Virus record (IMG/VR): IMGVR_UViG_3300013101_003214
Length of the DNA stretch: 13,150 bases
Direction: 5' to 3' (one strand)
Source: a virus
Shown here one piece after another: positions 11,988 to 13,150 of the stretch (position 1 is its first letter; each line of letters starts with the position of its first letter). Below the pieces are notes generated by a model. The model was not told the DNA's origin, searched no databases, and saw only the letters and a list, made by a program, of their open reading frames with translations. The translations under genes and the position numbers were made by a program.

Positions 11988-12058
11988 GCTCCATTAGCAT
12001 AGTGGAAGTGCACCGGCTTCGTAAGCCGGGATCCGCGGTTCGATTCCGTGATGGAGCT
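11988..12058 (+). tRNA. tRNA-Thr (CGT)
   Basis: Perfect acceptor gctccat/atggagc. T8A9. D-stem gcat/gtgc. Anticodon stem ccggc/gccgg with loop ttCGTaa (12020-12022). T-arm cgcgg-ttcgatt-ccgtg. U73. Confidence 0.6.
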
Positions 12059-12228
12059 CCGAGTGTTGCGTAGGTCAATAGTTGAGCGTGCTAGGGCTCT
12101 TTTCATCCAGCGGTAGTGGGACCTTAACGGGTCTAAAGGGTCGCTCCCCCCAACCTTAGAGCACCACGAACATGAGACCGAGCCGTGTACCGACTGGATT
12201 AACCACGGCTCTACGCAACTCTCCTCAA

Positions 12229-12302
12229 TCGGGTATCGTCTAACGGCAAGGCCCAGGTCTTTGACTCCTGATATCGTGGTTCAAATCCACGTGCCCGAAC
12301 CA
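12229..12302 (+). tRNA. tRNA-Gln (TTG)
   Basis: U1:A72 acceptor tcgggta/tgcccga. D-stem gtct/aggc with loop aacggca. Anticodon stem cagg/cctg with loop ctTTGac (12261-12263). T-arm cgtgg-ttcaaat-ccacg. A73 plus CCA. Confidence 0.5.
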
Positions 12303-12309
12303 AGCTTTT

Positions 12310-12383
12310 GCTCCTTGTAGCCATCTGGGAAGGCACCTGCCTTGTAAGCAGGCGAGGCGGTTCGATTCCGACAGGGAGCTCCA
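12310..12383 (+). tRNA. tRNA-Thr (TGT)
   Basis: Acceptor gctcctt/agggagc. Anticodon stem cctgc/gcagg with loop ctTGTaa (12343-12345). T-loop ttcgatt. U73 plus CCA. Confidence 0.55.
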
Positions 12384-12387
12384 TAAT

Positions 12388-12460
12388 GCCTCTCAGACAA
12401 GCTGGTGCAGGTGGCGGACTGTTAATCCGTGAGAGCTGGGTTCGATTCCCAGGGGAGGCG
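12388..12460 (+). tRNA. tRNA-Asn (GTT)
   Basis: Acceptor gcctctc/gggaggc. Anticodon stem gcgga/tccgt with loop ctGTTaa (12421-12423). T-arm ctggg-ttcgatt-cccag. G73. Confidence 0.55.
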
Positions 12461-12468
12461 CAACAACT

Positions 12469-12539
12469 GATCTCGTCAGCTAACGGTAGGCTACAAGATT
12501 CTCAATCTTGCAATGGGGGTCCGACTCCCCTCGAGATCG
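12469..12539 (+). tRNA. tRNA-Glu (CTC)
   Basis: Perfect acceptor gatctcg/cgagatc. D-stem agct/ggct with loop aacggta. Anticodon stem caaga/tcttg with loop ttCTCaa (12501-12503). T-arm ggggg-tccgact-cccct. G73. Confidence 0.6.
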
Positions 12540-12543
12540 CTAC

Positions 12544-12615
12544 GCTCGATTAGCTCAGCAGAAGAGCGCTGCTTCGACAAAGCAGAGGCCGGAGGTGCGA
12601 TTCCTCCATCGAGCA
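12544..12615 (+). tRNA. tRNA-Val (GAC)
   Basis: Perfect acceptor gctcgat/atcgagc. T8A9. D-stem gctc/gagc. Anticodon stem ctgct/agcag with loop tcGACaa (12576-12578, C33). T-arm ggagg-tgcgatt-cctcc. A73. Confidence 0.55.
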
Positions 12616-12624
12616 CCGATCACT

Positions 12625-12695
12625 GCCTTTGTAGTTCAACGGAAGAACGCTTGCTTGGTACGCAGGAAACGGGAGTTCGACTCTCCCCTTAGGCT
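12625..12695 (+). tRNA. tRNA-Thr (GGT)
   Basis: Acceptor gcctttg/cttaggc with two U.U. T8A9. D-stem gttc/gaac with loop aacggaa. Anticodon stem cttgc/gcagg with loop ttGGTac (12657-12659). T-arm gggag-ttcgact-ctccc. U73. Confidence 0.5.
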
Positions 12696-12699
12696 CTAT

Positions 12700-12771
12700 G
12701 GCTCTGCCGGTGGACCCGGGCCGCGGACTACGAATTCGCGAGAGAAGGTTCGATCCCTTCTAGAGTCACCA
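12700..12771 (+). tRNA. tRNA-Arg (ACG)
   Basis: Acceptor ggctctg/tagagtc. D-stem ccgg/ccgg. Anticodon stem gcgga/ttcgc with loop ctACGaa (12730-12732). T-arm gaagg-ttcgatc-ccttc. A73 plus CCA. Confidence 0.55.
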
Positions 12772-12843
12772 GTCACTGCGGGTGGAACCCGGCTTGAATC
12801 TCCGAAGTTCGATGAAGGCGTTCGATTCGCCTCAGTGGCACCA
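12772..12843 (+). tRNA. tRNA-Arg (CCG), tentative anticodon assignment
   Basis: Acceptor gtcactg/cagtggc. T-arm aggcg-ttcgatt-cgcct. A73 plus CCA. Best anticodon fold is tgaat/gttcg with loop ctCCGaa (12802-12804), which has two G-U pairs. Confidence 0.4.
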
Positions 12844-12844
12844 T

Positions 12845-12921
12845 GCCTGCGTGTCCTAATTGGAACGGGAGCACGGCTTAGACCCGTGTGTTTGTCGGTT
12901 CGAATCCGACCGCAGGCACCA
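12845..12921 (+). tRNA. tRNA with Leu anticodon TAG but only a 5-nt variable loop (class-I architecture)
   Basis: Perfect acceptor gcctgcg/cgcaggc. D-stem tcct/ggga. Anticodon stem cacgg/ccgtg with loop ctTAGac (12879-12881). T-arm gtcgg-ttcgaat-ccgac. A73 plus CCA. Confidence 0.55.
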
Positions 12922-12922
12922 T

Positions 12923-12999
12923 ACCTGGGTATTCCAACTGGCAGAGAAGGTGCCTTGAGGAGGCATACAGTGCGGGTTCGACTCCCGTCCCAGGTACCA
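12923..12999 (+). tRNA. tRNA with Leu anticodon GAG, short variable loop
   Basis: Perfect acceptor acctggg/cccaggt. T8A9. Anticodon stem gtgcc/ggcat with loop ttGAGga (12957-12959). T-arm gcggg-ttcgact-cccgt. A73 plus CCA. Confidence 0.55.
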
Positions 13000-13000
13000 T

Positions 13001-13077
13001 GGGGACATGATCTAACTGGAATAGATGCTGGCCTTAAAAGCCGGTTTTTGAGGGTTCGAGTCCCTCTGTCCCTACCA
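13001..13077 (+). tRNA. tRNA with Leu anticodon TAA, short variable loop
   Basis: Acceptor ggggaca/tgtccct. D-stem atct/agat. Anticodon stem ctggc/gccgg with loop ctTAAaa (13035-13037). T-arm gaggg-ttcgagt-ccctc. A73 plus CCA. Confidence 0.55.
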
Positions 13078-13078
13078 T

Positions 13079-13150
13079 GCCGGGGGTCGTAGACTGCGCG
13101 GGGCGTCCAAAGTCCTGCGTCCAGGTGAGACCCCTGGCAAGGCGCCAAGG
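13079..13150 (+). tRNA. probable 5' part of a further (class II?) tRNA truncated by the window edge
   Basis: Starts gccgggg right after the preceding CCA. Contains hairpin ccagg-tgagacc-cctgg (13121-13137). The 3' end lies outside the window. Confidence 0.25.

Follow-up and report, generated by a model that had tools for sequence, protein, structure and literature searches.

Leucine tRNAs with a short variable loop are encoded by three consecutive genes at one end of a 13,150-nucleotide stretch of viral DNA (IMG/VR record IMGVR_UViG_3300013101_003214), the whole of which is referred to here as the window. The three genes, called the trio below, carry the anticodons UAG, GAG and UAA, and each has class-I architecture instead of the long variable arm of canonical class-II tRNA-Leu. 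We consider it highly probable, from what can be read in the DNA, that they are functional class-I elongator tRNA-Leu genes of a large uncultured phage, located within a near-complete tRNA set. An earlier interpretation of the letters alone (the sequence-only reading) had left a choice between genuine short-arm leucine tRNAs and tRNAs whose identity differs from what the anticodon suggests. The first of these is supported, since the leucine identity elements other than the long arm are present in the trio, and since the genes fit a covarying family of class-I Leu tRNAs.

Gene structure and fold of the three tRNAs

With default settings, ARAGORN places tRNA-Leu(UAG) at 12845..12921 (body 12845-12918, CCA 12919-12921, anticodon 12879-12881), tRNA-Leu(GAG) at 12923..12999 (body 12923-12996 followed by CCA, anticodon 12957-12959) and tRNA-Leu(UAA) at 13001..13077 (body 13001-13074 followed by CCA, anticodon 13035-13037), all on the plus strand. 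Each gene is 77 nt long including the encoded CCA, and a single nucleotide separates neighbors. The Rfam tRNA model RF00005, for which the gathering score is 29 bits, matches the 74-nt bodies at 57.8 (UAG), 47.4 (GAG) and 58.1 (UAA) bits, with E-values of approximately 1e-7 to 1e-10 and with alignments covering model positions 1-71 of 71. All three genes are also recovered by a class-I Leu covariance model (R1, described below), and the GAG and UAA genes by a position-specific scoring matrix (PSSM) as well. The initial observation of three consecutive Leu-anticodon tRNAs with class-I architecture is therefore borne out by ARAGORN and Rfam.

In the ARAGORN cloverleaves, the 7-bp acceptor stems GCCTGCG/CGCAGGC and ACCTGGG/CCCAGGT are perfect, while GGGGACA/TGTCCCT includes a single G.U pair at 1:72; the anticodon and T stems are 5 bp each in every gene. 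Leu(UAG) exhibits the D arm TCC-TAATTGGAACG-GGA, the variable loop TGTTT (ending in U48), the T loop TTCGAAT, A73 and A37. The corresponding elements of Leu(GAG) are TTC-CAACTGGCAGA-GAA, ACAGT (U48), TTCGACT, A73 and G37, with A1:U72, and those of Leu(UAA) are ATC-TAACTGGAATA-GAT, TTTTT (U48), TTCGAGT, A73 and A37, with G1.U72. The perfect or near-perfect acceptor stems, A73 and encoded CCA that had been noted for the trio are thus found in all three genes, as are the 5-nt variable loops and 74-nt bodies. According to the Rfam alignments, the variable region of each gene is 5 nt, which agrees with the definition of class I (4-5 nt and no extra stem-loop). The sequence-only reading had proposed a check for alternative folds that expose a long variable arm; none is possible in any fold of the trio, because only 5 nt separate the anticodon stem from the T stem.

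The universal tertiary nucleotides (U8, A14, G18G19, U33, T54-U55-C56 and A58) are all present in all three genes. A pattern based on class-I spacing matched two of the three, compared to an expectation of 0.00 in 200 shuffles of the window. For Leu(UAA) the cloverleaf is the predicted minimum free energy (MFE) fold; for Leu(UAG) and Leu(GAG) it lies 6-7 kcal/mol above an alternative, non-cloverleaf MFE structure, a gap that by itself says little for an unmodified tRNA sequence. Pairwise identity within the trio is just 53-56%, and the genes are therefore not recent duplicates.

Leucine identity and the class-I family

In Escherichia coli, the determinants of leucine identity are A73, the A15-U48 pair, G18G19, A20a and the tertiary pairs joining the D loop to the T loop (PMC9976931; the same list is given in PMC6614811). 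Neither the anticodon nor the long arm is required by E. coli leucyl-tRNA synthetase (LeuRS), which still charges an armless minimal tRNALeu, whereas serine identity rests on the variable arm (PMC9976931). All three genes of the trio share a D arm consisting of a 3-bp stem and an 11-nt loop of the form N13-A14-A15-Y16-U17-G18-G19-N20-A20a-N21-R22, together with the A15:U48 Levitt pair, T54/A58, A73 and a T loop of the form TTCGANT. The elbow determinants, namely A14, A15:U48, the position of G18G19, A20a, U54:A58, G18:U55 and G19:C56, are all found in the trio; the long variable arm of canonical class-II tRNA-Leu is not, its place being taken by the 5-nt loop. So far as E. coli-type elements can be scored in a gene, every testable one is present in the trio and just the dispensable long arm is absent. 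The combination of this D loop with U48 and A73 is confined to the trio, occurring in 0 of the 24 other tRNAs called by default in the window.

Two proxies for isotype models were constructed. One was a PSSM on structure-registered tRNAs from IMG/VR loci, in which the anticodon was masked, the variable region was cut to its first and last base, and the Leu model was trained on class-II Leu only; its cross-validated accuracy was 0.745, and it superseded an earlier classifier on a MAFFT alignment that performed poorly (198 columns, accuracy 0.63). This PSSM ranked Leu top for Leu(GAG), by a margin of 4.2 log units, and for Leu(UAA), by 7.8, and it assigned 88 of 163 IMG/VR class-I 'Leu' genes to Leu. 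The other proxy, R1, was a covariance model whose training set comprised 48 class-I Leu tRNAs from outside the window, their anticodons randomized. R1 ranks the trio top in the window (UAA 78.1, UAG 73.3 and GAG 68.8 bits, with the next best tRNA at 53.7), compared to ranks of 9th, 10th and 21st under a general tRNA model. Among the controls, the tRNA-Leu of phage BF23 scored 74.9 bits, and the class-II tRNA-Leu of E. coli leuV scored 50.8 bits because of its variable-arm insertion. Taken together, the two proxies appear consistent with leucine and give no confident alternative, without being decisive.

To place the trio in a family, we aligned 51 class-I Leu tRNAs, comprising the three from the window, 47 from IMG/VR and one from Salmonella phage STG2. 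The 74-nt alignment is free of gaps, and U8, A14, A15, U17, G18, G19, A20a, U33, A35, U48, T54, U55, C56, A58, U60 and A73 are invariant. Of the cells at paired positions, 98.2% pair, compensatory changes are found at 20 of 20 pairs, and the covariation score is 1.03, versus 0.25 for shuffled and less than 0.21 for slid controls. An ungapped alignment with compensatory change at every pair indicates a conserved, selected class-I Leu family. Alignment to phage tRNA-Leu had been suggested as a further check, and the trio indeed fits this gap-free phage family, with R1 scores of 68.8-78.1 bits that bracket the value for BF23.

Class-I tRNA-Leu in other phages and in bacteria

The closest known systems are T5-like phages. 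The tRNA-Leu1 gene (tRNAL1) of BF23 is a 77-nt class-I Leu(UAG) gene (AJ604530, 3881-3957), and its GenBank note states that a version with a CUA anticodon is an effective amber suppressor, a property that implies both charging of this class-I tRNA and its use in host translation; amber suppression is on record for BF23 alone, as that note. Like the trio, BF23 Leu1 and the T5-like Leu(UAA) genes of Salmonella phage STG2 and Escherichia phage vB_EcoS_MM-1 are 77 nt long, with encoded CCA, A73, a 5-nt variable loop ending in U48, a 3-bp D stem and the 11-nt loop GAATTGGCATA; the STG2 gene is 76% identical to Leu(UAA) of the window. These phages also resemble the window in having class-II Ser and Tyr tRNAs and a tRNA array interspersed with homing-endonuclease genes. 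They differ from it in that they infect Enterobacteria, are AT-richer and have just one or two class-I Leu genes, not a full block of three isoacceptors. In the same slot of the array, between tRNA-Ala and tRNA-Ser2, T5 has an 85-nt class-II Leu(UAG) (6625-6709 of the fetched locus) and BF23, a close relative of T5, a 77-nt class-I Leu(UAG) (594-670), and the two sequences are unrelated; judging by this, the difference looks like gene replacement and not deletion of the arm.

A cellular counterpart is known from Streptomyces coelicolor, whose type I tRNALeu(CAA) is leucylated in vitro by its own LeuRS (Fan 2019, PMC6614811). There, A73 is no identity element, the leucine-specific domain of LeuRS is needed, and a human mitochondrial tRNA is not charged by the S. 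coelicolor enzyme (PMC6614811). We found chromosomal class-I Leu genes in many Actinomycetota, which extends this published case. The lone actinobacterial tRNA-Leu(UAA/UAG) genes are, like the trio, class I with A73; their D arm is GCC-CAATTGGCAGA-GGC and their variable loops include CCAGT, ACAGT and TCAGT, to which Leu(GAG) of the window is close in its D loop and its variable loop ACAGT. Identity between these genes and the window Leu genes is 63-72%. Unlike the trio, which lies on phage-like DNA, they are cellular, chromosomal and single-copy, usually without encoded CCA, with one class-I Leu isoacceptor per genome beside class-II isoacceptors.

The class-II tRNA-Leu genes of E. coli (leuQPV) provide a further comparison. 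The 87-nt tRNA-Leu(CAG) of leuV has the same D-arm build as the trio, GCG-GAATTGGTAGA-CGC (A14 A15 U16 U17 G18 G19 N A20a), and shares the last variable U, A73, C2:G71 and the T loop with window genes, but its variable arm, which also ends in U, is 15 nt instead of 5. Metazoan mitochondrial tRNA-Leu(UUR) likewise belongs to class I, and its identity elements include A73 and A14, although it differs from the trio in its floppy, partly unfolded anticodon branch, caused by mismatches, and in its dedicated mitochondrial LeuRS (PMC9976931). An affinity of the trio to mitochondrial-type tRNA-Leu was rejected, the elbow of the trio being canonical and its stems well paired.

How widespread the form is in viruses was surveyed in IMG/VR, using a pattern that runs from the UAR anticodon loop to the T loop with class-I spacing. 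At least 120 contigs matched, and among the matches listed ARAGORN called class-I tRNA-Leu in 115 of 125. A class-agnostic sample was obtained by freeing the gap in this pattern (14-31 nt) and taking the first 120 contigs, of which 29 had class-I spacing; the sample yielded 28 verified class-I and 75 verified class-II Leu genes, or approximately 27% class I, a figure for Leu(UAR) genes only that is bounded by one T-loop motif and by scan order. A complete class-I Leu set is not special, because in 27 IMG/VR loci with at least two Leu genes every Leu gene is class I. In 124 viral loci with class-I Leu, 68 of 69 Ser tRNA genes and 28 of 30 Tyr tRNA genes belong to class II, so that a short Leu arm beside long Ser and Tyr arms, as in the window, is the rule among such loci; it is also the outcome expected from identity rules under which LeuRS ignores the arm and serine identity rests on it. 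Among GenBank phages, 491 records match a concatenated set of class-I Leu genes, most of them T5-like phages of Salmonella and Escherichia, with others infecting Vibrio, Acinetobacter, Lactobacillus, Streptomyces, Aeromonas, Mycobacterium and Bacillus, as well as some cyanophages; many of the listed alignments cross the variable loop without a gap. In blastn searches with the trio, distant matches were to annotated tRNA-Leu genes of 75-77 nt in Salmonella phage STG2 and in Streptomyces phages.

The class-I pattern was also run against species-representative bacterial genomes, where ARAGORN called at least 107 class-I Leu genes among the matches listed. Of these listed matches, 88 stand alone or almost alone on the chromosome and measure 73-74 nt, with A73 in 87 of the 88, and Actinomycetota account for 59 of 80 listed record titles (e.g., Mycobacterium, Nocardia, Rhodococcus, Gordonia, Arthrobacter, Microbacterium and Nocardioides). 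On several contigs of metagenome-assembled genomes (Acidobacteriota, Pyrinomonadaceae and Kribbella), class-I Leu is embedded in arrays of 10-34 tRNAs, and such contigs may represent prophages or wrongly binned phage DNA.

The premise of the sequence-only reading, that bacterial tRNA-Leu is normally class II, holds for leuQPV of E. coli, but the unusualness of the trio was overstated, as class I is frequent in phages and native in Actinomycetota. Our literature searches retrieved no explicit description of phage class-I tRNA-Leu, 'type I tRNALeu' was scarcely discussed in the literature searched, and a review describes tRNA-Leu as long-armed everywhere except in animal mitochondria (PMC9976931). 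These surveys suggest that textbooks and recent reviews greatly understate how common short-arm tRNA-Leu is. Nothing sets the trio apart from hundreds of phage examples of this known, little-publicized form.

Several observations weigh against leucine tRNAs that work in translation. The BF23 note demonstrates translational function but names no inserted amino acid, and the S. coelicolor tRNALeu(CAA) was not charged by LeuRS of E. coli or of S. purpurogeneiscleroticus (PMC6614811). In the PSSM, which is a crude proxy, Leu(UAG) is tied with Met and Ile (-71.4, -71.5 and -72.3, respectively). The R1 test is partly circular, its training set having been picked by the D-loop signature, and T5 tRNA-Glu, Lys and His also receive 61-66 bits from it. 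Leu(UAG) carries A37 rather than the G37 expected for m1G37, although A37 is common among phage class-I Leu(UAG) genes. Finally, the window contig comprises only 13 kb.

Some of these points could be taken to mean that the trio is charged with another amino acid, or poorly charged, so that Leu codons are recoded or mistranslated. Class-I architecture is shared with most non-Leu tRNAs, and the class-I 'Leu' genes of IMG/VR appear heterogeneous in that approximately half were not assigned to Leu by the PSSM; the tie for Leu(UAG) and the rejection of an actinobacterial class-I tRNALeu by E. coli LeuRS fit the same idea. Nevertheless, the full leucine elbow signature with A73 occurs in all three genes and in no other default-called tRNA of the window, the trio scores highest with the class-I Leu family model, G3:U70 (Ala) and a long arm (Ser) are both lacking, C2:G71, an antideterminant for SerRS, is present in two of the three genes, and Leu codons occur at ordinary frequency in the window open reading frames (ORFs). 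No proxy confidently indicated another amino acid, and MetRS and IleRS, like LysRS and ArgRS, depend on anticodon bases that are absent from the trio. An identity other than the anticodon suggests is thus unsupported, and we regard recoding as the least probable of the explanations considered. Hardly more probable is that the genes are decaying or non-functional pseudo-tRNAs, or that their tRNA-like products serve in something other than translation. Aberrant tRNA-like genes do occur in the array (an Arg pair at 12700-12843, a Met gene at 10844-10916 and a doubtful His call), and for two of the three Leu genes the MFE structure is not the cloverleaf; yet no stem is broken, the acceptor containing one G.U at most, the universal tertiary nucleotides and the CCA are retained, the full structure is kept despite the low mutual identity, the anticodon set is non-redundant, and compensatory covariation across the wider family is strong.

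A different kind of alternative alters the purpose of the trio and not its identity. The short arm itself might be selected, such that the trio escapes a host or phage nuclease or toxin that recognizes or depletes class-II tRNA-Leu, thereby forming a defense-resistant replacement set. The proportion of class-I genes among sampled viral Leu(UAR) is much above that in the literature for bacteria (PMC6614811), coliphages carry class-I Leu though their host has class-II tRNA-Leu, T5 and BF23 differ in class at the same array position, and all six Leu codons would be decoded by the trio alone. Phage tRNAs have also been proposed to act against tRNA-cleaving defenses, according to the statement in PMC10644984 that cites van den Berg 2023 and Azam 2023. 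If such selection operated, an armless set would stay chargeable while being invisible to a host defense or a phage host-shutoff nuclease that recognizes class-II Leu, which would explain why class-I Leu is so much commoner in phages than in most bacteria. On the other hand, no nuclease specific for class-II tRNA-Leu was found in this analysis or in the bacterial literature examined, and the variable arm is unmentioned in van den Berg 2023. Bacterial Schlafen nucleases were considered as a class-II-specific threat and rejected, as the one studied in PMC13056530 cuts tRNA-Lys, Met, Ala and others, not class II specifically. Class-I Leu is moreover an ordinary chromosomal gene in Actinomycetota, and neutral loss of an unneeded arm accounts for the pattern just as well, Ser and Tyr having retained theirs. 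We therefore judge counter-defense to be unlikely, if somewhat less so than recoding or decay. The simplest reading is that a structure dispensable to LeuRS was lost. The trio very probably encodes real, working leucine tRNAs.

The tRNA array, its phage and the probable role of the trio

The trio is the last complete block of an array of approximately 36 tRNA genes for all 20 amino acids (7704..13077, plus strand). ARAGORN with default settings reported 27 tRNA genes and one transfer-messenger RNA (tmRNA) in the window; relaxed ARAGORN and Rfam add tRNA-Met, Tyr, Trp, two Ala, Val, Ile and two Arg. Many of the genes are 1-8 nt apart, mostly with encoded CCA. The class-II assignment originally made for two tRNA-Ser and a tRNA-Tyr of the window is confirmed: tRNA-Ser(CGA) (9785-9868, plus strand; ARAGORN) and tRNA-Ser(GCU) (9874-9960, plus strand; ARAGORN, and Rfam with 44.5 bits at 9874-9957) have variable regions of 15 and 18 nt, respectively, and tRNA-Tyr(GTA) (8010..8093, plus strand) is 84 nt long, the latter being called only by relaxed ARAGORN (-ps) and by a weak tRNA-Sec-type Rfam match (34 bits, 8010-8089). 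tRNA-Ile(TAT) (10768-10842, plus strand), which has the best Rfam score of the window tRNAs (67.2 bits), is distinct from tRNA-Ile(GAT) (10997-11070, plus strand); Ile tRNAs with a UAU anticodon are uncommon in bacteria. An ARAGORN call of tRNA-Ser(cga) at 9557-9646 is apparently an artifact, as Rfam (61.2 bits) and the mitochondrial mode of ARAGORN instead give tRNA-Ala(GGC) at 9538-9609 (plus strand), which has G3:U70 and an unusual C at position 33. Beyond the trio, at 13079-13150 (plus strand), another tRNA-like gene may start; the most permissive ARAGORN settings give Trp(cca) at 13074-13147, and the window ends there. An independent Logan contig (L003) starts at the same position as the sequence past the last Leu gene.

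Immediately upstream of the trio are the two tRNA-Arg-like genes (12700-12771 and 12772-12843, plus strand), which have the anticodons ACG and CCG, A73 and encoded CCA, and which were called by relaxed ARAGORN and found by neither default ARAGORN nor Rfam. Both have a compact, non-canonical D arm in which a 4-bp stem directly adjoins the acceptor stem; between the two genes this stem reads CCGG/CCGG versus CGGG/CCCG, a difference that amounts to one compensatory pair, and it leads to a loop of 5 nt (TGGAC or TGGAA) and then to a connector of 3 nt. In an alternative fold the D stem is 3 bp and nucleotide 26 is absent. The A after GG in this loop could be the ArgRS determinant A20. In a structure-aware search of approximately 3 Mb of fetched loci from phages and bacteria, Arg genes with this compact build were confined to the window and to two contigs that duplicate it (L003 and L004). 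The tRNA-Met(CAT) at 10844-10916 (plus strand; Rfam score of only 36.5 bits) also has a compact D arm, in which nucleotides 8-9 are absent and a 4-bp stem (TCCT/AGGA) is followed by a 6-nt loop and a 2-nt connector.

Protein-coding genes were assigned using Pfam and PHROGs. A PD-(D/E)XK endonuclease ORF (8890-9306, plus strand) lies within the array, an endolysin-like ORF (VanY/PG-binding; 11292-11966, minus strand) interrupts it, and an HNH endonuclease ORF (1733-2260, minus strand) adjoins the tmRNA. The placement of the PD-(D/E)XK and HNH genes recalls the homing-endonuclease genes dispersed in the tRNA regions of T5 and BF23. The tmRNA (2274-2605, minus strand; Rfam 115 bits, ARAGORN) is of the one-piece type, encodes the tag peptide ANDNIVAAPLAVAA and is located among phage-type genes. 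Thymidylate kinase and GroES families are also represented in the window, which looks like part of a large phage. An 885-amino-acid ORF (4636-7293, minus strand) is a homolog, of full-length size, of the eukaryotic major vault protein (Pfam MVP_shoulder, E 4.6e-21); in phmmer it matches vault chains of the PDB (861-893 amino acids) at E 2.5e-12, with ORF residues 507-800 colinear with chain residues 475-779. Among GenBank phages it has relatives only in LR756500 (462 kb) and LR756501/LR756503 (735 kb), which are huge phages known from uncultured material, at 36-38% identity and 92% coverage. The presence of a vault-like shell protein in such phages seems to merit a study of its own.

Searches for relatives of the window phage itself were negative. 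Megablast of the array and blastn of the tmRNA gave no match among GenBank phages, an endolysin-based scan of IMG/VR gave no confirmed relative, IMG/VR contained no exact copy of a 25-mer from Leu(UAG), and a loop-anchored degenerate pattern for Leu(UAA) had 0 matches in JGI metagenomes. None of the fetched arrays exceeds approximately 70% mean tRNA identity to the window, and no tRNAs were found within 20 kb of the vault homologs in LR756500 and LR756501 or of the endolysin homolog in Rctr197k. Attempts at contig extension yielded just fragments of 2-5 kb that repeat this sequence, have the same right-hand end and come from a single sample (SRR6478915 / ERZ27227323). tRNA-Pro(GGG) (10436-10513, plus strand) is 86% identical over 79 nt to a sequence of Tunturi_5, a 309-kb phage of Tunturiibacter (Acidobacteriota). 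As the highest-identity match of a single tRNA to a cultured phage, it may offer a weak hint of the host lineage.

From the genes, their fold, their identity nucleotides and their membership in a widespread covarying family, we infer that the trio would be expressed, processed, leucylated and used in translation. Transcribed as part of the array, each tRNA would be cleaved by RNase P at its 5' end, 1 nt past the preceding CCA, and its 3' end trimmed to the encoded CCA. Leucine would be attached by the host LeuRS, or conceivably by a phage-encoded one; such charging is plausible because bacterial LeuRS reads A73 and the elbow formed by the D and T loops, all present in the trio, and neither the anticodon nor the long arm. 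By standard wobble, UAA would read UUA and UUG, GAG would read CUU and CUC, and UAG would read CUA and CUG, so that the three anticodons cover the six Leu codons as a minimal complete leucine decoder. Leu codons make up 197 of the 2224 codons in nine window ORFs (CTC 79, CTG 63, CTT 24, TTG 16, CTA 12 and TTA 3), all of them covered by the trio. The phage could thereby translate Leu codons independently of the host tRNA-Leu pool, and the trio, the rest of the array and the tmRNA may together provide a near-autonomous tRNA supply. Phage tRNA arrays are usually explained by codon-usage matching, host tRNA degradation or escape from tRNA-cleaving defenses (PMC10644984).

For this window, the finding is of little import, as the trio appears to be a normal part of the translation toolkit of a large phage. 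The wider interest, itself modest, lies in the picture that the survey suggests, in which class I accounts for approximately one quarter of phage tRNA-Leu(UAR) genes, a tRNA-Leu(UAA) of class I is found in many Actinomycetota, and loss of the arm from Ser and Tyr tRNAs almost never occurs. This asymmetry between Leu on the one hand and Ser and Tyr on the other is relevant to the annotation of phage tRNAs, to the design of orthogonal or compact Leu tRNAs, and to defenses that target tRNAs.

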